Source of the DNA: a virus
Virus record (IMG/VR): IMGVR_UViG_3300036939_000082
Location: 32,001 to 96,000 of that record
Reading direction: 5' to 3' (one strand)
Length of the DNA stretch: 64,000 bases
The notes beneath the pieces were generated by a model. The model ran no database searches and was not told the DNA's origin. It saw only the letters and a program-made list of their open reading frames with translations. Below are positions 2,566 through 41,295 of the stretch, piece after piece. Position numbers and translations under genes: made by a program. Positions within the stretch are counted from its first letter, which is position 1. Each line of letters begins with the position of its first letter.

Positions 2566-2925
2566 TTAACTTTGCTCATTTTGTTTTTCTAAACCAACAT
2601 CAACGATCGCCAGTCGATTTAAAAAAGACTGGCGATTTTCTATTACAGATTTCCCGGTTTTTGTAATTTGATAATATTTCCGTCGTACCCCTTCTAATTC
2701 ATCGCCCCATCTAGGAGTTATCCAACCTTTTTTTTCAAATTCTCTAAGAGTTGGATACAAAGATACTGGATTGTATTTTATTGTATTATTTGTCGCATTA
2801 CTGATAATACGAGCTATCTCTAAACCATACAAGGCTTGACCGTACAGGCTCCGAAGGATAGCTTCTTCTTTGGTTGTTATATCAGAAATTTTACTATTAG
2901 GCATACTACACAGTATATATAACAA
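2566..2925 (-). CDS. PadR-family transcriptional regulator (generic type)
   Basis: LYGLEI...SLYPTLREFEKKGWI..RW...RRKYYQITKTG winged-helix signature. Confidence 0.88.
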   Translation of the reverse strand: MLYILCSMPNSKISDITTKEEAILRSLYGQALYGLEIARIISNATNNTIKYNPVSLYPTLREFEKKGWITPRWGDELEGVRRKYYQITKTGKSVIENRQSFLNRLAIVDVGLEKQNEQS

Positions 2926-4796: not shown

Positions 4797-6188
4797 CTAC
4801 CAGAGAATTGGCTCCTCCTCCTCGTATTTTTCGACAATTACGGCTTTCGCAGGTTCAACTGCGGAGGCTTTTTCAATTTCAGCAATATTAGCAGCCAAGA
4901 TTTCTTCTGCCTTGGTCGGTCTGCCAAATCTTTTATTGAGGAGCGATCGCGCCCTTTCTCTCGCCGCCAAACTTTCTGGGGTCGGTGCATACGGGTCTGC
5001 CGCTTCCTCTTCCTCCGTCGCTGGATCTAAATCTGTACCCGTCGTCGGTTCGAGTTCCGGAAGTGAAGTCTCAACGCAAGCGATCGCGTAGGTCGGTAAA
5101 TTGTTGGCGATCGCCCGTTCCTTCGGTACTCCCAGCTCAACCTGTCGCGTCGCATCTTCGATCGCCCGCTCCAATCCCAATTTCACAGCATTCGCCACCG
5201 CCGCCACGACTGGCAGTCTCCGCAACTGCCCCGCTGCATTTTTGGCCGCCTCTGTTGTCGTCGCGCCGACTTTGTTAATGCAATCCTGGGCGATCGCCTC
5301 AGCTACTACCTGTTCCGGCACTCCCCGCAGCCTGAAGCCCGGGGGAACCAAGCGACTGCCCAATTCCTCACCGGAAATAAACTCTTCCCACAATAGGGCC
5401 ACACTAGCTTCTGGAACTTTCGCCTTAGACTCGCGCATGACCCAGTTGGCATATCCCTCGGGGGAATCGATGTCTACCCGCTGGTAGCAGTATTCCAAAA
5501 GTCTCTCAAAAAATAATTGTCGCTCAACCGGACTCGACCGCACGGAACACCGATCTTTTTCCAAAAATTCATTTTTTTTGAGAAGTTCGGCAACCACCTT
5601 TGCTTCCAGCAGACTGTCTTCAAGCAACCTCTTCTCTTCGTTCTCTTTTTCTATTTCTAAAAATTTATCAATAGTTCCGCCCGCTTCTCCGGGAGAGATT
5701 TCTTGAAAAACTTTTTTTGAAGATGTATCTTGATATGATTTGCGCTCAGTCGCGAGATCGATAGGATCATTTTCGGGTGATCGATTTGACGGTTTTGCGC
5801 AAATCGAGAGCGGCGCACCTTTCAGCAATTCAGCCAGCTTTTCGTAGCTGACTGCGTAGTATTTACATTGGTCAAAATAATTAGCCCTCAGTTGGCGGAC
5901 GACAATCAAGCCCAGCTTCTCAAGTCGAGCAAATATGCGGCGGAGTTTGTGGGCGCTCAGCCAGGGGAAGTTTCCCAGCCAGTCTACCTGCTTGCCGTGA
6001 GACTTGTTTAGTTTGCGCGGGTTGGTGCAGAGGATCGGGTTGCGAATCATTTTTATGCCGTCGGGAGCGATCGTCCCGCTCATCGCTGGGTTCTCGACGC
6101 ACCACTGAAGTTTGTTGAAGATTACTGCTTCCTCAAGTCCGATAGCGGCCGCTAGGTCTGGGCTGAAAAATCCTAATTCTTGAGACAT
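4797..6188 (-). CDS. Phage/plasmid replication initiator (N-terminal winged helix)
   Basis: FSPDLAAAIGLEEAVIFNKLQWC...NFPWLSAHKLRRIFARLEKLGLI...DQCKYYAVSYEKL is typical of phage replisome-organiser N-termini. Confidence 0.78.
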   Translation of the reverse strand: MSQELGFFSPDLAAAIGLEEAVIFNKLQWCVENPAMSGTIAPDGIKMIRNPILCTNPRKLNKSHGKQVDWLGNFPWLSAHKLRRIFARLEKLGLIVVRQLRANYFDQCKYYAVSYEKLAELLKGAPLSICAKPSNRSPENDPIDLATERKSYQDTSSKKVFQEISPGEAGGTIDKFLEIEKENEEKRLLEDSLLEAKVVAELLKKNEFLEKDRCSVRSSPVERQLFFERLLEYCYQRVDIDSPEGYANWVMRESKAKVPEASVALLWEEFISGEELGSRLVPPGFRLRGVPEQVVAEAIAQDCINKVGATTTEAAKNAAGQLRRLPVVAAVANAVKLGLERAIEDATRQVELGVPKERAIANNLPTYAIACVETSLPELEPTTGTDLDPATEEEEAADPYAPTPESLAARERARSLLNKRFGRPTKAEEILAANIAEIEKASAVEPAKAVIVEKYEEEEPILW

Positions 6189-7683: not shown

Positions 7684-8406
7684 TTGAATGTCTTAAAAAC
7701 ACAAATACGAACAAAAATAATGAACTCATCTAAATTTACCCGTCCTTCTTTGGCTGAATATTCTCAAGGCTATTATCAGGCAGCCCCAGTCGAGTCAATC
7801 TGCAATAATTCGTACAAATTGATTGAGCAGTGGGAAATCCCTGTTTTAGAATCTGGGGAAATCCTTGTATACGGGGTGCGTCTCGTTCCCTCTCAAAAAG
7901 CTAAAATTAAAGTCTATTTTGGCTCAAGATCTAAGCGAGCAGTTGTTTGGTCTGAAGACCAACCATATAAAATGATGGGCGTTAGCTACGATTGCTATGG
8001 ACTTAAATTCAAAGAACAAGGGGATACTGTTTCGGATGAAACTATTGAAAGATACCTTGTTAATAATACAAGTCACGGCGTGTTGTACTTATCTTTTACT
8101 GGCGTTTCAATAAATTGCACTGACGAAAACTGGAAATTGCATCTTTCTAAGCCAGAGAAATATCTGAGCTGGACAGGTTCGGAACGTTTTTGTTCATCGG
8201 AAACCAATCAAATTTTTCAAAAAATAGCAAAACAAGTAGGCTGCACGGTTCCCAGAAGAGTTTTTGTACAATGCAACTGGCAATTGGAAGCTAACAACAA
8301 ACAAAACATTACGCCACGAAAAACTTCTTATCTAAAAATTTGCAGAGATTTGTCAATAGTTGAGTACAAATCTGCTGACGATGTTATGGTTTCTATCCAT
8401 TTTTGA
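7684..8406 (+). CDS. Hypothetical protein (AT-rich)
   Basis: 240-aa ORF; true start may be MNSSKF slightly downstream. Confidence 0.7.
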   Translation: MNVLKTQIRTKIMNSSKFTRPSLAEYSQGYYQAAPVESICNNSYKLIEQWEIPVLESGEILVYGVRLVPSQKAKIKVYFGSRSKRAVVWSEDQPYKMMGVSYDCYGLKFKEQGDTVSDETIERYLVNNTSHGVLYLSFTGVSINCTDENWKLHLSKPEKYLSWTGSERFCSSETNQIFQKIAKQVGCTVPRRVFVQCNWQLEANNKQNITPRKTSYLKICRDLSIVEYKSADDVMVSIHF

Positions 8407-12270: not shown

Positions 12271-13299
12271 ATGAACACTCAACTGACACTTGCACTCGAC
12301 ATATTCCCCGACGCCAGTCTAACTTTAGAGCAAAAAATCGAATGGAGTTTAAAAGTTTTTGACAGTTTAGACGAAGAGAAAGAGTACCGACTTGCTTTTA
12401 GTGGAGGTAAAGACAGCCACGTATTACTCGGAATATACTTAAAGTGGCGCGAGTCTCGTCAAAAAAACTTGAAGTTAAATGTGGTCTTTTCTGATACGTT
12501 GCTAGAAAGTCAGCAGCTTTACAGTCTGATCGAATTGACAGAGAAGACTTGCAAGGCAAAAGAAATCAACTTTATTCGAGTTAAACCCTTGTTAGAACAC
12601 AATTTTTGGGTAATTCTGTTTGGACTGGGTTATCCTGTACCGAATCACAGGGTTAGATGGTGTACAAGCCGTTTAAAAATCGATCCAATGGAAAAGACCC
12701 CGGGCATCGGCATTACGGGTTCTCATTTTGGAGAGAGTACAAAAAGAGACAACAGACTAAAAAAATGCGGTTCCAACGAATGCGGTATCAATGAATTATC
12801 TAATACTGTTGAACCTTTAGCAATCTGGCGAAACTGCGATATCTGGGATTGGATAATACTGTACTCTGACAGTATTATCTATAACGGAGTAAGCAGTCAA
12901 TTATTGTCCACATACAACATAGCAGAAGATAAAAATGGGAGCTTGAGAATGGGTTGTTTTATGTGTCCCGTGATAGCTCAGAGTACAACAGTTAAATTGG
13001 TAAACGATGGCATCGTGTCTCCAATTACCCTCAAAATTCGGGAGATTCTTGAAATTTTGCGAAAAAAACCCAGGATTTTATCGCAAAGGACTAAAAAGAA
13101 TGGGGCAATTTTAGTGGACGCTAGAATCGAAGTTTGGGAAAAAATGAAACCTTTTTTTCCTGTACTTTTAGAAAACAACTGGATTCAGCCCGAGGTAATA
13201 CACTTGGTTGAAGAAATGTTGTCTAAGAGAACTTACCCCCCAACCTACAAACAAGATTGGATAAAAGAACAGGAACAACTTCTCAAAAGTTTAGACTAG
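12271..13299 (+). CDS. Short DndC-like / PAPS-reductase-family protein
   Basis: AFSGGKDS PP-loop, SDTLLE, FWV.L.G.GYP.P...RWCTSRLKIDP, LRMGCFMCPV. Confidence 0.85.
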   Translation: MNTQLTLALDIFPDASLTLEQKIEWSLKVFDSLDEEKEYRLAFSGGKDSHVLLGIYLKWRESRQKNLKLNVVFSDTLLESQQLYSLIELTEKTCKAKEINFIRVKPLLEHNFWVILFGLGYPVPNHRVRWCTSRLKIDPMEKTPGIGITGSHFGESTKRDNRLKKCGSNECGINELSNTVEPLAIWRNCDIWDWIILYSDSIIYNGVSSQLLSTYNIAEDKNGSLRMGCFMCPVIAQSTTVKLVNDGIVSPITLKIREILEILRKKPRILSQRTKKNGAILVDARIEVWEKMKPFFPVLLENNWIQPEVIHLVEEMLSKRTYPPTYKQDWIKEQEQLLKSLD

Positions 13300-13875: not shown

Positions 13876-14075
13876 TAGGTGTATGAGTAAAAATCTGTTT
13901 TGTTTTTGATGGTATCACAAGTTGTGGCACTACGCAAACGAAAAGCCTCTCGGTTAAGTACCAAAGGACTTTTTCGATATTTAATTGGTAAACTAAAAAT
14001 TTACACAAATGCTTTAAGATGTAAATAGCGTGCTACTAGGCTGCTTTTTCCATCACTGACAAGGACTAAACCAAT

Positions 14076-14495
14076 ATGACTTTTAAAGAATCTCGTTTTT
14101 TGCTTCGCTTTGACGAATTTGCGCCAAAAGCTTTCTTGATCGCCTTAGCAAAATTTGAAGGAATTTTTTCCTCTGACTTGATACATCAAGTGAATCAAGT
14201 AGGCGATGCTTTAATCGGTAATGAATTAGAACAAACATCTCAACTTATTTGTATTGCCCAAAAAGATGTTATTTTTTACGAGGTTTTCAAACAGGCTTAC
14301 GAGGACTTGCTGGAAGTTGACAGTGAAAATGCAAGTTACTTTGATAAATCAGATATATGCTTGCGACGGACTGGTGATGATATTGAGAGATTTTTAACTA
14401 CTCCCCTGAGTGATGCAAATCCTCAGACTGCGGTCAAAAGACTTTTTGGAGGAGCAGATAATTTAGTTGAACGGGTTTATCAACTGAGATTTTGA
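14076..14495 (+). CDS. Hypothetical protein
   Basis: 139-aa ORF on the opposite strand between two homologous promoter/terminator blocks. Confidence 0.7.
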   Translation: MTFKESRFLLRFDEFAPKAFLIALAKFEGIFSSDLIHQVNQVGDALIGNELEQTSQLICIAQKDVIFYEVFKQAYEDLLEVDSENASYFDKSDICLRRTGDDIERFLTTPLSDANPQTAVKRLFGGADNLVERVYQLRF

Positions 14496-14622
14496 TTTGA
14501 TCTGTTATCGTAGTTAGTACCCAGCTAAGTCATTAGACGTTTTGGAAAAGGTTCACTTTTTTGTTCGGGTCTACAGAGGTGAGACTGCTTTGTTTTTGAT
14601 GGTGTCACAAGTTTTAACGGGA

Positions 14623-14671
14623 CGCAAACAACAAGCCCTTCAGTATTTAAATGAAAGGCTTGTTGTTTGCG
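14623..14671 (-). terminator. Terminator downstream of pex
   Basis: cgcaaacaacaagcc...ggcttgttgtttgcg. Confidence 0.8.
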
Positions 14672-14734
14672 TTGAAAGCTACGAAGCATCAATCTCTATC
14701 CAACCAGGATTTGGTGTGTAAATTTCACAACTCT

Positions 14735-15097
14735 TTAAGTGTGTTGTGTGTCCCAAAAATTAGCTAATGTCTGAACCTCTTTACGCCATTCTGCCGTCAA
14801 ACTGTACATTCGACGGGGGCGACCGCGCCCTTCTGTCTTTTTCCAGTAGGGTTTTGTTATCCCCTCTTTCTCAAGAAAATTTAATGCGACATAAAGTACC
14901 GTATCAGAAACCTGATAAACAGGAAATTTTTCTTTCAGTTTGTCCATCAGTTCTGTTCCGTAGGAATCTCCCTCTAATAAAACCGAAAGGATGTAACATA
15001 CTGCCTCTTCTGGGTTTAGGTAAATAGGGGGTGGGAATTGAAAATATTGATAAATTTTTGCGAGGCTGAGCCGTGAATTCGTTGGGTTGTGGATCAT
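14735..15097 (-). CDS. pex: Pex (circadian period extender) homologue, PadR family
   Basis: IYQYFQFPPPIYL..EEAVCYILSVLLEGDSYGTEL...SDTVLYVALNFLEKE...YWKKTEGRGRPRRMY matches cyanobacterial Pex nearly residue for residue as recalled. Confidence 0.88.
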   Translation of the reverse strand: MIHNPTNSRLSLAKIYQYFQFPPPIYLNPEEAVCYILSVLLEGDSYGTELMDKLKEKFPVYQVSDTVLYVALNFLEKEGITKPYWKKTEGRGRPRRMYSLTAEWRKEVQTLANFWDTQHT

Positions 15098-15437
15098 TGG
15101 TTTTGTTGATTCTAATACTTTTATTAGTTTAGCACGATAAAACGTTTAGCAGTTTATTTCGATCGACAGGTTTTTGTTTTTTACGGTTAGAGATTACGCA
15201 GTTTGTTTGCCTAAAATGTGGCAGTGAGGCGGATATATAGAATTTTGCGATGTTATTGTTTTGATTTATAACAAACCTTGATTTAGTATTGCTTGTAACT
15301 CTCCCCCGTGCTAGAATGAATTATAAAATTTTCAGGAAAGCCCATAAGACGGTAACATTCCTTCAGTGTCAGCTTTCTCACTACATCTTGCTCGGGAATG
15401 TAGATAAAAAACCTACCCGATGTTTCTTGCGAAGGAA

Positions 15438-15574
15438 TTGTGGGATGTACTCCATCTACCGAATAAATGCGATTAGGTTGTCTGTGAACTCTCGATAAAT
15501 GTATCGAATTGTTTACCGGGCAAGCCGACTGACTGAACCAAGAATCCTCGTACCTTTAGGTCGAAGAGTGTCAA
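15438..15574 (+). mobile_element. IS605-family tnpB 3'-end / omega-RNA-like remnant
   Basis: gtgggatgtactcc...accgggcaagccgactgactgaaccaagaatcctcgtacctttaggtcgaagagtgtcaa is typical of cyanobacterial IS605 right ends; no tnpB ORF. Confidence 0.65.
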
Positions 15575-18160: not shown

Positions 18161-19726
18161 TTAGTGTTTTTGACCAAATTTTAAGTCTGCCCACGACAAT
18201 TGCTTGTCTATATTCTCTTTTGGCTTGCTAATTAACTCCTTAATTTTTTCCATGCCATCAACTCCATTGTTAACCGCTGCACTCAACTCGTGTTTTTCCT
18301 GTGCTCGCGATATCGCATCCTCCCGAGATTCTCCATTCCGCTCAAATGCTTGCTCCAAAGGCTTATAAACGTTTTTGCGATGGGGTGATAAACGTTGCTT
18401 ATCCGTCAGACTTAGCAAGCTTGCCATCAGTTCTAGGTGATTTTTGTCGTCACCACAAACCTCTTTAAGCGCTTCCCACTCTTCATTGCCAAGGATAGTG
18501 CGCTCGTCAATATGTCGAACATCTTTAAAAACTTCACCCGTCGCTTCTTCGTAAATTCGTGGCAAACTGTCGTCAAATTCATGCTTCTGTTCTAGCCAAA
18601 TCCTGCGGATTTCACTGAGTTCTTCTGGGGTAATTAAGGTGATGTCGCGCATTTCTAGGGGTGCAGTTTTGCGGATGTGAGTCTGTGTTTCTAGTACCCG
18701 TCTGAGCCAGTGTTCGCGCCAATGTCGTAGATATGGTCCTGGTATAAGTTCGACAGACGTGGTGCCGTCGTCCATCGTCTTGTCGAATAGATCAACCCTG
18801 CCGTTCATCCGTCGATAATCGCGCCGATCACGATCGTCCGGGACTTGTAGTTCGTTCCGAATATCAAGCAACGGTTGCATCCATTCTTTTTGACTGTCGT
18901 TAATAATCATTGCTTCCATCGATTTGTCTTTGCTAACCATCGTGCAAGTCCAACAACCAAACCGAGAACTACCACAGCTAGGGGTAGAAGTATCAACTAC
19001 TAGCGGGCATTCATTATCTGCCGTTGCGCCACGATACATGACAAACAGATCTTTGTTGCTCCCGCCCCACGGATTGTCAAATTGCATCAAATACATCCAT
19101 ACCTCGTCCGTGCGCCAATCTTCAATCGGAAGGTAGATAAAAGATCCAGGATTTGCTGGGCTTGAGTTTAAATGTTTTGCTACCCTGCTTTCCCTATGCT
19201 TCGCCATATTGGTGGCACGGGTAGAACTTTCAGCACTACGAGTGCCAAGTGCCAAAACAACTTGACCGCAGGTGGCGATCGACTGACGTATAAAGACCGT
19301 GGCGGGATTGATTTTTAGACGATCTGTACACCATCGAAAATTACGCCGGGGTGCTGCATACCCTTTCCCAATCAAACAAACCCAAAAAGTGTCCTGAATA
19401 GCTGGTGTAGTGACTTGAGTTACGATCGGCATTTCTTGTTCCAATGCTGCTCGCTCCATCTGCTTCAACGAACTGCGAACTTGGGCGGACACAATTGGAT
19501 TCTCCACCAGCGTGTCATTTGTGAGTACGTAGATTTTGTGGATGCGTTGATCGATCGGTAGTTGGCGGACGGCGTTCCAAATTAACTGCAAAACCGTGGT
19601 ACTATCTTTGCCTCCACTCCAACCGATGACAATTGGATTGCCCTCTAGATATATTTGCTGAATTTCTTTGGTCAGCAGTTCGATTTCGGTCATTAGACCG
19701 GGAACGGTACGGAGAGTATCTGTCAT
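18161..19726 (-). CDS. dndC: DNA phosphorothioation sulfurtransferase DndC (full length, host-like)
   Basis: GWSGGKDST, DTLVENP, FWVCLIGKGYAAP..NFRWCTDRLKINP, ADNECPLVVDTSTPSCG.SRFGCWTCTMV.KDKSM, PGPY, EELSEIRRIW. Confidence 0.92.
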   Translation of the reverse strand: MTDTLRTVPGLMTEIELLTKEIQQIYLEGNPIVIGWSGGKDSTTVLQLIWNAVRQLPIDQRIHKIYVLTNDTLVENPIVSAQVRSSLKQMERAALEQEMPIVTQVTTPAIQDTFWVCLIGKGYAAPRRNFRWCTDRLKINPATVFIRQSIATCGQVVLALGTRSAESSTRATNMAKHRESRVAKHLNSSPANPGSFIYLPIEDWRTDEVWMYLMQFDNPWGGSNKDLFVMYRGATADNECPLVVDTSTPSCGSSRFGCWTCTMVSKDKSMEAMIINDSQKEWMQPLLDIRNELQVPDDRDRRDYRRMNGRVDLFDKTMDDGTTSVELIPGPYLRHWREHWLRRVLETQTHIRKTAPLEMRDITLITPEELSEIRRIWLEQKHEFDDSLPRIYEEATGEVFKDVRHIDERTILGNEEWEALKEVCGDDKNHLELMASLLSLTDKQRLSPHRKNVYKPLEQAFERNGESREDAISRAQEKHELSAAVNNGVDGMEKIKELISKPKENIDKQLSWADLKFGQKH

Positions 19727-39063: not shown

Positions 39064-40479
39064 TTAGAATAATTTTAATTGTACTCCATTAGTTTCGTCT
39101 ATGGAAGACCTCTTGGGTTTTCGTTGAGATTTGCGTCGAGTTCTGCCTTGAGCTTGCGGTGGACTTATGGGAAGTTCCATTGGTAATGTCGGAGGTTCCG
39201 CTGCAATTGCAGGAGGTTCTCCGGTCGCCCCCGGTTTTCCTTCAAAAAATTTATCCCCACCTTCTTCGCTTAAAGGTTTTTCACCGACGCGCCTTCTACT
39301 TTCGTCTTTCGTAATAATTCCGTTAGTGTACAGAGTGCTTGCTGTGTCAGCTTCCTCGCTTTCTTTTCTCGGTTCCGTGTCAGTCAGCGTCAAGGTGTAC
39401 CCAGGAGCATAAAAGTCGATTACTTTGATGTTTAAATTTTCAATTACGCAGGTGGCGATCGGCAAGATTGCATCTTGAAACGTCAAGTCCGCTGCAGGTC
39501 CCATCGTCGATCGGTTGTCGTGGGGGTCAATTCCGTAATCGCGTTTCGACAGTCCAAACTCGATCGCGATCAACCCAGCCAGATAGTCGGAAAATTTCAA
39601 AAACAGCTCTTCGTCGTTTTTGGCTCCAAATTTTATGACATCTACTTTGCCTGCTAAGATTGGAACCTCTCCAGATCCTACAACGTGAACCTTCCAATAG
39701 TCTCGAAACGGTTGCAATTCGTCGTGAGTGGCATTTTCAACTGTGATCATGTAATCCCGTACCGGATTGTTCACTATCCGACTTTGATAGTTATCGAGAT
39801 CTAGCCATGTAGTTAAGCGTTCGTAGGCGCAAGCTACCGGAGATGGCGGAAACAATTCGTTACTCGCAGATCGGTTTTGAATTAAGAAAAGATTTTTGCT
39901 GAGAATCGGTATCCAGTTATTGTCGTCTAAATAATGATAAGAACTTCTGTCTTGGTTTTGGCAGTACCAAAACTTGGGGTCTATACCTTCCCTAGACGCA
40001 TCCCAATTTTTATCTAGGTGAACTTTTTCCGGTGGAACCGCCCACAGCCAAAAGGGTTGAAATCCTTCGGTTCCCGGTTGCCTTTCTACCGCTGCAACGC
40101 CCATAACTAAGATATCCCGGATTATTGCTTTGACGAAACTGCTGTACAAGTCGTGTTCCGCATTGTTCGGTTGGCTCAGCGCCTTAGTTAATTCGAGCGT
40201 TTTTTTTCGAGCGCCTTCGTCATCGCTCAGTTCTTCTGGCGGGGCGATCGTCCACGGCATCGCCACAACAGCATTCGAGATCCGCTCGATCGCCCGCGAA
40301 AACAAAGTCTTTTTGGAAATCGATCTCAATTTTTGGGGACTCACCGGATCGCAGTTGAGCGATTTATTAAAGTGACCCACTGGATTGAAATACTCCGAGG
40401 CACTATATAATGAGGCAATGGCGCGTTGCTGATACTGAAAATCTGGAACGGGCGATCGGGTTAAGCTGTTTGGAACCAT
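39064..40479 (-). CDS. Portal protein
   Basis: RAIERISNAVVAMPW, D.LV.G.A.VE, IAIEFGLSKRDYG, IITKDESRRRVG. Confidence 0.88.
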   Translation of the reverse strand: MVPNSLTRSPVPDFQYQQRAIASLYSASEYFNPVGHFNKSLNCDPVSPQKLRSISKKTLFSRAIERISNAVVAMPWTIAPPEELSDDEGARKKTLELTKALSQPNNAEHDLYSSFVKAIIRDILVMGVAAVERQPGTEGFQPFWLWAVPPEKVHLDKNWDASREGIDPKFWYCQNQDRSSYHYLDDNNWIPILSKNLFLIQNRSASNELFPPSPVACAYERLTTWLDLDNYQSRIVNNPVRDYMITVENATHDELQPFRDYWKVHVVGSGEVPILAGKVDVIKFGAKNDEELFLKFSDYLAGLIAIEFGLSKRDYGIDPHDNRSTMGPAADLTFQDAILPIATCVIENLNIKVIDFYAPGYTLTLTDTEPRKESEEADTASTLYTNGIITKDESRRRVGEKPLSEEGGDKFFEGKPGATGEPPAIAAEPPTLPMELPISPPQAQGRTRRKSQRKPKRSSIDETNGVQLKLF

Positions 40480-40923
40480 ATCAAAAAAAAATACCGCAAT
40501 CTGTAGGGACTCCGGCTAGGAAAAATATTTAATTTTATGACTCTTGATTCGATCGCCCGCAGAGCGTCGCCCGCAGTTATTTACGGTCGCGATATTCCGA
40601 GGAAATCAAATAAAATGAGTATCTACAACGATACCCTGATTCCTTACTTTTTGCTCGAAAATTCGGGGGAGCCTCGGAACTTCCGGGAATTCTTGATCCA
40701 GAACGAGGTTGGTTCTGTATTTGAAGAGATGTATCCGGGGATGGAAGTCAAGGTTCAGCGGGGGGGTGATCGGGGGGGTGAGTTCCTGCGTCACCCGGAA
40801 GCTTGATTTTTTTTACAAAATTGTAGGTTTTTCCAAGACAATTGTTGGTTCTATACAAAATCGCGTTGTTTCTTGCAAGCAATAATATACAATAAAATCA
40901 TCAACTGTCGTTACGGGTAAAGT

Positions 40924-41295
40924 ATGGCTTCAAAATCGATTAACCAAACTACTTCAATTTTGGGATTTTTTGGATTTATAGCTTTGTTGTTGGCGATCGC
41001 GTTTGTACTTTGGTTTATCCCTAATTACAATGTGTACAGCTCCGAGCAAGACGGAAGGGCAGCGCTAGCCCGTGCAGAATACTCAAAAAAAGCACAAGTG
41101 CAAGATGCAATGGCTAAACTGGAGTCTGCAAAGTATATTGCGGAATCAGCAAAATTAATTGAGTCGTCGCTAACTCCAGGATACTTGCAATACTTGCGGA
41201 TTCAAATGCAAGAGCAAGTAGGAGAACGCAATCCCAGTGCAGTGTATTTTTTCGACGGAAATAGCAGCGATCGAATAGTTGTTCCCGCAAAATAA
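40924..41295 (+). CDS. Small membrane protein with coiled coil (phage membrane-protease-subunit-like)
   Basis: One TM helix then P.YNVY...G.A.LA.AE...; terminator at 41313-41362. Confidence 0.55.
   Translation: MASKSINQTTSILGFFGFIALLLAIAFVLWFIPNYNVYSSEQDGRAALARAEYSKKAQVQDAMAKLESAKYIAESAKLIESSLTPGYLQYLRIQMQEQVGERNPSAVYFFDGNSSDRIVVPAK

Follow-up and report, generated by a model that had tools for sequence, protein, structure and literature searches.

The window, by which we mean the whole 64,000-nucleotide stretch analysed here, carries a pex-like gene on its minus strand (Table 1). The 120-amino-acid reading frame and all three Pex motifs quoted for it in a preliminary description of this DNA are present exactly as claimed. 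The gene is adjoined by a methylase relic and by genes for a DUF488 protein, a helicase, DndC-like proteins, and an LRR protein; in many Microcoleaceae genomes a single region resembles the relic, with identity as high as 92%. Two DndC/PAPS-reductase-like genes lie on either side of the pex region, and the 521-amino-acid product of one of them scores 631 bits against a DndC cut-off of 290, a version of about 400 amino acids being carried by the relatives instead.

The gene had also been credited with a promoter and a terminator of its own. Upstream, TGCTAAACT occupies positions 15134-15126, 28 nt ahead of the pex ATG, and its core TGCTAA is found, together with an A/C-rich leader, in all five aligned phage loci. 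A sigma70 consensus scan makes no call at this element, yet the element is conserved, so we regard it as a conserved candidate for an extended -10 promoter; A/C-rich leaders also stand ahead of neighbouring genes (families D4, D7, D9, and D13), and the leader is therefore not special to pex. Downstream, the hairpin is real, but a terminator scan does not call it and the relatives are without it, so that the terminator stands as a candidate. Just downstream of pex, two copies of a 60-nt direct repeat (78%) enclose a 139-amino-acid reading frame that is absent from the related genome G002 described below; the repeat pair is a possible insertion footprint.

Table 1. Features of the pex region and of other loci mentioned in the text (window coordinates unless another record is named)
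Feature	Coordinates	Strand	Remarks
pex-like gene	14735..15097	-	120 aa, ATG start; Pex-subfamily PadR winged-helix transcription factor
Candidate extended -10 promoter with A/C-rich leader	15098..15141	-	conserved in 5 phage loci
HIP1-core-like site (CGATC)	15160..15166	.	about 65 nt upstream of start; invariant columns in 5-locus alignment
Hairpin with 21-nt arms, candidate terminator (I7)	14622..14672	.	63 nt past pex stop; z = -5.07
3' relic of C5 DNA methyltransferase gene	15289..15502	-	89-90% to L005/L111, where it is intact just upstream of pex
Direct repeat, 60 nt	13895-13954 and 14585-14644
139-aa reading frame	14076-14495
DndC/PAPS-reductase-like gene	12271-13299	+
DndC/PAPS-reductase-like gene	18161-19726	-
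Replication-initiator-like gene	4797-6188	-	PHROG 11233
Second PadR gene	2566-2925	-	generic
Two-component module, three genes	G000 128664-131916 (L020:13664-16916)		outside window
6,321-codon reading frame	G000 134444-153409	-
Xre helix-turn-helix/metallopeptidase-like fusion	L115:10-1179 (G002 40010-41179)		near possible small terminase
Nodularia phage Pex-like gene	GenBank MK605246 52693-53028 (L278:2693-3028)		and 8 other records
Two Pex-like genes, Pantanalinema VRZD01000018.1	L245:5330-5671 and 8001-8342

The assignment of the protein to Pex, as first proposed, was borne out by sequence, profile, and structure comparisons. It belongs to the PadR family (Pfam PF03551, 50.1 bits against a gathering cut-off of 27), and a phmmer search of the PDB placed Pex of Anabaena (2dql) first, at E = 4.7e-37, followed by Pex of Synechococcus (2e1n and 2zfw) at about 1e-33, with the next PadR protein at 2.8e-9. 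A profile built from 129 cellular-type Pex sequences gave the protein 170 bits and gave the second PadR protein of the same phage 12 bits. The AlphaFold model (pLDDT 89) has the order of helices and wing expected of a winged-helix fold and superposes on 2dql with a TM score of 0.85 and an rmsd of 1.5 A, against about 0.6 for other PadR proteins; Foldseek likewise ranked Pex structures (8e-16) far above other PadR structures (1e-6). A generic PadR identity was ruled out by the gap among the PDB matches and by the cellular-Pex profile scores. The second PadR gene is itself generic and is kept in G002 (65%) and at locus L008.

In structural alignment the phage protein is 52-53% identical to Pex of S. 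elongatus PCC 7942 and Anabaena PCC 7120 (2e1n, 2zfw, and 2dql; TM 0.81-0.85), with which it has in common the Pex-type N-terminal helix, the proline run, and a nearly identical recognition helix and wing; identity to Microcoleaceae Pex is 62-66%. We propose that it folds as a Pex-type winged-helix dimer. Unlike known Pex, it is phage-borne, does not adjoin CCB1, belongs to a separate, long-stemmed clade, and has evolved faster.

The source record (G000; 188,942 bp) comes from a biocrust metagenome in IMG/VR, where it is rated 98% by CheckV and labelled a provirus. By its gene content, the replicon is a tailed phage of about 190 kb (Caudoviricetes, with a contractile tail), terminase, portal, capsid, sheath, and baseplate genes all lying on it. 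The matches are to a gpA-type terminase ATPase (5.5e-12), a portal (3e-19), and a sheath (1e-14), those to an SU10-like capsid and to the baseplate being weak. A second genome, IMGVR_UViG_3300035684_000001 (G002; 188,553 bp), has 140 of 172 open reading frames in common with it, at 74% nucleotide cover and 82% identity. G002 is a circular permutation of the source record, whose ends are neighbours there, about 3.5 kb apart; the two records thus represent a single phage group, each as a near-complete genome. The statement in the preliminary description that pex has phage genes on both sides thus holds at the scale of the genome, but the genes adjacent to pex are accessory genes and not hallmarks.

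No tyrosine integrase (PF00589) was found in G000, and neither a serine recombinase (PF00239) nor a ParA-type ATPase (PF01656) in G000 or G002; the searches covered the trimmed records, G000 being roughly 6 kb shorter than its 194,977-bp parent contig. The provirus label may reflect this trimming of the ends. With no integrase found, the effect on lysogen physiology that had been suggested for phage Pex is unconfirmed. In the bridging stretch that is missing from G000, G002 encodes a fusion of an Xre helix-turn-helix to a metallopeptidase-like domain, a possible lysogeny-type repressor.

A pex gene could also appear at this position if host DNA had been joined to phage DNA in assembly, or if the phage had recently picked up a functionless passenger. 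The provirus label would fit such an origin, as would the methylase relic, with its close host match, just upstream of pex. The locus itself argues otherwise. Contig depth is 13-15x and even across it, repeats excepted (the run may be the source sample), and the locus is present in a second assembly as well. The closest homologues of the gene (65-74%) are those of G002, L005, L008-L013, L111, and the P0012 contig, which have a common neighbourhood of DNA methylase, DUF5131, DndC-like, helicase, and DUF488 genes, although the genes right beside pex vary; in G002, circularly permuted as it is, and in four further contigs, pex occupies this same neighbourhood. Of the chromosomal pex loci fetched, all but one have CCB1 or DUF751 as a neighbour, which no phage or plasmid locus has, and the phage gene accordingly lacks the setting of a chromosomal ortholog, which adjoins CCB1 and usually DUF751. 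The mis-joining to a host chromosome against which the preliminary description had warned was ruled out by the relatives, the second assembly, the depth, the permutation of G002, and the absence of CCB1 and DUF751; given also that pex is under purifying selection, artefact or neutral carriage is nearly excluded.

All pex-bearing relatives were located through pex itself, and pattern scans of viral and metagenome sequences for phage Pex added G002 alone; the replication-initiator family, used as another way to relatives, led to other paralogous loci. The phage copies, 12 proteins of which six were checked for phage context, form one clade with support of 100/99 and a long stem, and the window copy is the longest branch in the inner phage clade. 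The attachment of this clade among cellular Pex is supported at no more than 43/87, the distant PadR outgroup rooting the tree unreliably; a root within the phage clade, obtained with that outgroup, is probably the result of long-branch attraction and was not used. Between phage pex copies dN/dS is 0.10-0.25, 3-5 times the value for host pex (0.03-0.05 for Microcoleus and Kamptonema copies), and synonymous divergence between phage and host pex is near saturation. A recent copy of the host gene was ruled out by the separate clade and the near-saturated dS. Judged by this divergence, the gene is an old capture that has been retained under purifying, somewhat relaxed selection, and phage pex can be described as an auxiliary Pex-subfamily regulator of host origin that resides in a phage.

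CRISPR spacers matching G000 or G002 occur in six Microcoleaceae genomes, the best spacer of each genome having one or two mismatches; one of the six (G192) is Microcoleus sp. S13_C5 by its coordinates. Each of the six contains kaiA, which is present in 137 of the 144 genomes of the family, and host pex, which adjoins CCB1, is single-copy in 61 of the 63 genomes in which it was found. HIP1 density is 0.67/kb in the phage and 0.96/kb in host loci. The likely hosts are thus Microcoleaceae that have kaiA and a pex of their own; Microcoleus, the likely host, is a dominant builder of biocrusts.

Phage Pex has not changed evenly along its length. At 23 sites of the DNA-reading head, the 12 proteins of the phage clade match the cellular consensus at 98%; at 30 further sites of strong conservation the figure is 84%. 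The window copy matches at 21 of the 23, its recognition helix and arginine-rich wing being intact, and the start of the recognition helix and the wing are nearly invariant. Arita in 2007 and Kurosawa in 2009 are reported to have found the wing of Pex necessary for DNA binding. More diverged Pex-like proteins match at 71% of the head sites and the copy in Nodularia phages at 35%. In cellular Pex, too, the head sites are the most conserved (99% against 96%), and part of the signal is therefore structural. The contrast between head and remainder suggests, all the same, that phage Pex still binds Pex-type operators. Changes common to the clade lie outside the head and set it apart from cellular Pex: an N-terminal extension, I51M, G83P/A (G83P in the window copy), and the loss of the C-terminal Tyr. 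The window copy adds R62Q, L63V, and E55K, the first two at near-invariant sites immediately before the recognition helix.

From these observations we propose that a cyanobacterial pex was captured long ago by a phage lineage and would have been retained as an accessory regulator, small and with a transcript of its own. During infection of Microcoleus, phage Pex would most likely act on operators of the class that host Pex recognises and would supply Pex repression that does not depend on the dark-controlled expression of the host's own pex. That phage Pex binds operators of the host type, outside the host's control by darkness, is a reading that we hold with about as much doubt as confidence, and the selective retention of the head, in contrast to the Nodularia copy, is the main argument for it. 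Weighing against it are the long branch of the window copy and its R62Q and L63V, the raised dN/dS of phage pex, and the operator searches described below, which defined no operator. Expression, DNA binding, operators in common with host Pex, and the identity of the targets we infer; phage Pex probably acts on the host's Pex-controlled genes, so that it would target the Pex regulon of the host, concerned with dark or stress adjustment, possibly together with phage promoters. One of them may be kaiA, in which case the circadian period would be modestly longer, and the selected benefit need not be the clock.

The preliminary description had gone further, proposing that the phage can retune the host clock or mimic a night state. 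Pex is a cyanobacteria-specific repressor of kaiA that is absent from Prochlorococcus and Synechocystis 6803 (PMC5520375), and kaiA is its only established direct target (PMC5520375; PMC12000584). That manipulation of the clock is the selected function, with kaiA repressed and a longer period or a night-like state timing replication or lysis, would agree with this target, with the intact head, with the presence of kaiA in nearly all Microcoleaceae genomes, and with the diel rhythms of cyanophage infection (PMC6628666). Deletion of pex, however, makes the period shorter by no more than about 1 h, and the rhythm stays largely stable (PMC12000584). It is light, not the clock, that the infection rhythms track (PMC6628666), and infection by phage AS-1 was unchanged by deletions in the host clock, by the account of that work given in the same paper. 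In favour of a broader role for Pex are its effect on acid tolerance, with an acid-stress phenotype (PMC10781874), and its place among the high-influence nodes of a network obtained by inference (bioRxiv 10.64898/2026.06.09.731130).

Sequence searches, too, count against manipulation of the clock. Neither G000 nor G002 contains kaiA, kaiB, or kaiC, and the integrase and ParA searches yielded no indication of the multi-day residence that a change of period needs. Upstream of Microcoleaceae kaiA, an S. elongatus-type kaiA box was unrecognisable (best match 16 of 25, shuffles 17 of 25), and upstream of phage pex the S. elongatus-type kaiA element scored at the level of shuffles; both are weak tests, since the query element was taken from locus L158 as the presumed equivalent of the PCC 7942 site. 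Although it is compatible with binding to host-type operators, we rate it as unlikely that the clock is what selection has acted on, and are similarly doubtful of the fuller proposition that phages of filamentous cyanobacteria captured Pex at least twice and that in the Microcoleus lineage its use is repression of host kaiA, by which an infecting phage would alter the circadian or night state of the cell. The remark that no phage-borne clock regulator had been described agrees with our search of the literature, which fell short of most subscription papers and in which neither Pex nor a clock gene was described from any phage.

Another use of the gene would be internal to the phage: a repurposed Pex could control phage promoters (its own, or those of the neighbouring DNA-modification and replication genes), any effect on the host being incidental. 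The place of pex among methylase, DndC-like, helicase, and replication-initiator genes would suit such a role, as would the recurrence of Pex-like genes in other phages and on plasmids, in many cases with further regulators close by, the altered recognition helix of the Nodularia phage copy, and the fact that this phage keeps an ordinary PadR protein too. The replication-initiator-like protein of the window has its like at two other loci, with three paralogues on the contig and three on G002. Under internal control, however, DNA-binding specificity would be free to drift, yet the head of the clade is almost wholly host-type. Enrichment of gapped palindromes in 108 phage intergenic stretches, moreover, returned only HIP1- or terminator-like words and no enriched operator-like palindrome, and ATGT-N8-ACAT occurs once in the whole phage genome and never in intergenic DNA. 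A purely internal regulator thus appears unlikely to us.

The clade-wide changes outside the head raise the further prospect of an antagonist of host Pex, which would form mixed dimers with it, or occupy its sites without proper repression, and so lift host Pex control. A host-phage heterodimer model scored 0.60, against 0.26 for the best control, with at least 90% of contacts agreeing between runs and a partner pLDDT of at least 86. This is weak support: 58 of 80 solved pairs came up to the mark, as did 2 of 110 mismatched ones, passes at or below 0.60 being more often wrong than right, and the score is explicable by likeness to the solved Pex homodimer. Dominant negatives, moreover, usually lose their DNA-binding residues, and in phage Pex those are the best kept; we consider antagonism very improbable. 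Host-type operator binding remains the reading we prefer.

Phage Pex is not the sole mobile Pex. Plasmids of Acaryochloris marina (pREB3; AM1_RS33300, annotated as 'circadian period extender'), Chroococcidiopsis (pCHRO.01), and Kovacikia (pA) likewise carry an extra Pex on a mobile replicon; these replicons are plasmids and not viruses, and their copies branch among cellular Pex, outside the phage clade. No functional study of plasmid-borne Pex homologues was found in the literature. With an E-value limit of 1e-10, a Pex profile search gave 112 clusters, of which many are diverged; one is located on a contig of phage-like character and another close to an integrase. In Pantanalinema, two Pex-like genes are surrounded by response regulators and a GAF/PAS kinase, with an integrase near. 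Given homologues on plasmids and on other cyanophages, mobile Pex is recurrent rather than unique.

Among cultured phages, tblastn with the window protein gave no Pex-like match, and the Nodularia gene emerged through fold search only, in which the top viral match was gp073 of Nodularia phage vB_NspS-kac68v162. The best PDB matches of gp073 are the three Pex structures (E = 6e-11; next PadR 0.038), and a Pex-like gene, annotated only as 'PadR family' or 'transcriptional regulator', is present in nine records of cultured Nodularia phages, vB_NspS-kac68v162 and vB_NpeS-2AV2 (Ravarandavirus) among them. These copies, like phage Pex, are cyanophage-borne and have Pex as their nearest structures, but they are only 26% identical to the window protein, and their recognition helix and wing are changed. 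The capsid-like protein of the window phage has no match in any cultured phage, and the Nodularia Pex is therefore probably an independent capture.

Cyanophage auxiliary genes such as CP12 are host-derived genes that phages keep and that override a light- or dark-regulated host process. Genes of the CP12 type act on metabolic or photosynthetic proteins, whereas phage Pex is a DNA-binding regulator linked to clock input. Were the clock reading true, phage Pex would be a means, encoded by a virus, of acting on the circadian clock of a bacterium; studies of phage rhythms point instead to host photosynthesis (PMC6628666). Given that phage Pex has been conserved for long and that its DNA-reading surface is intact, reporter strains of S. 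elongatus would allow a direct test of the clock reading; for infection work there are the cultured Nodularia phages, whose Pex, however, has diverged. Should the clock prove not to be the target, the fact that phages and plasmids have taken up pex repeatedly still suggests a reach of Pex beyond kaiA, and the phage proteins are a route to finding the Pex regulon.

Elsewhere on the phage genome, a three-gene two-component module, 77-88% conserved in G002, encodes a GAF/histidine kinase of 641 amino acids, a single-domain receiver of 138 amino acids that presumably resembles Rcp1, and a second receiver protein; the module is a possible environmental sensor. Beyond it lies a reading frame of 6,321 codons, matched in G002 at 88% identity over 6,037 residues.
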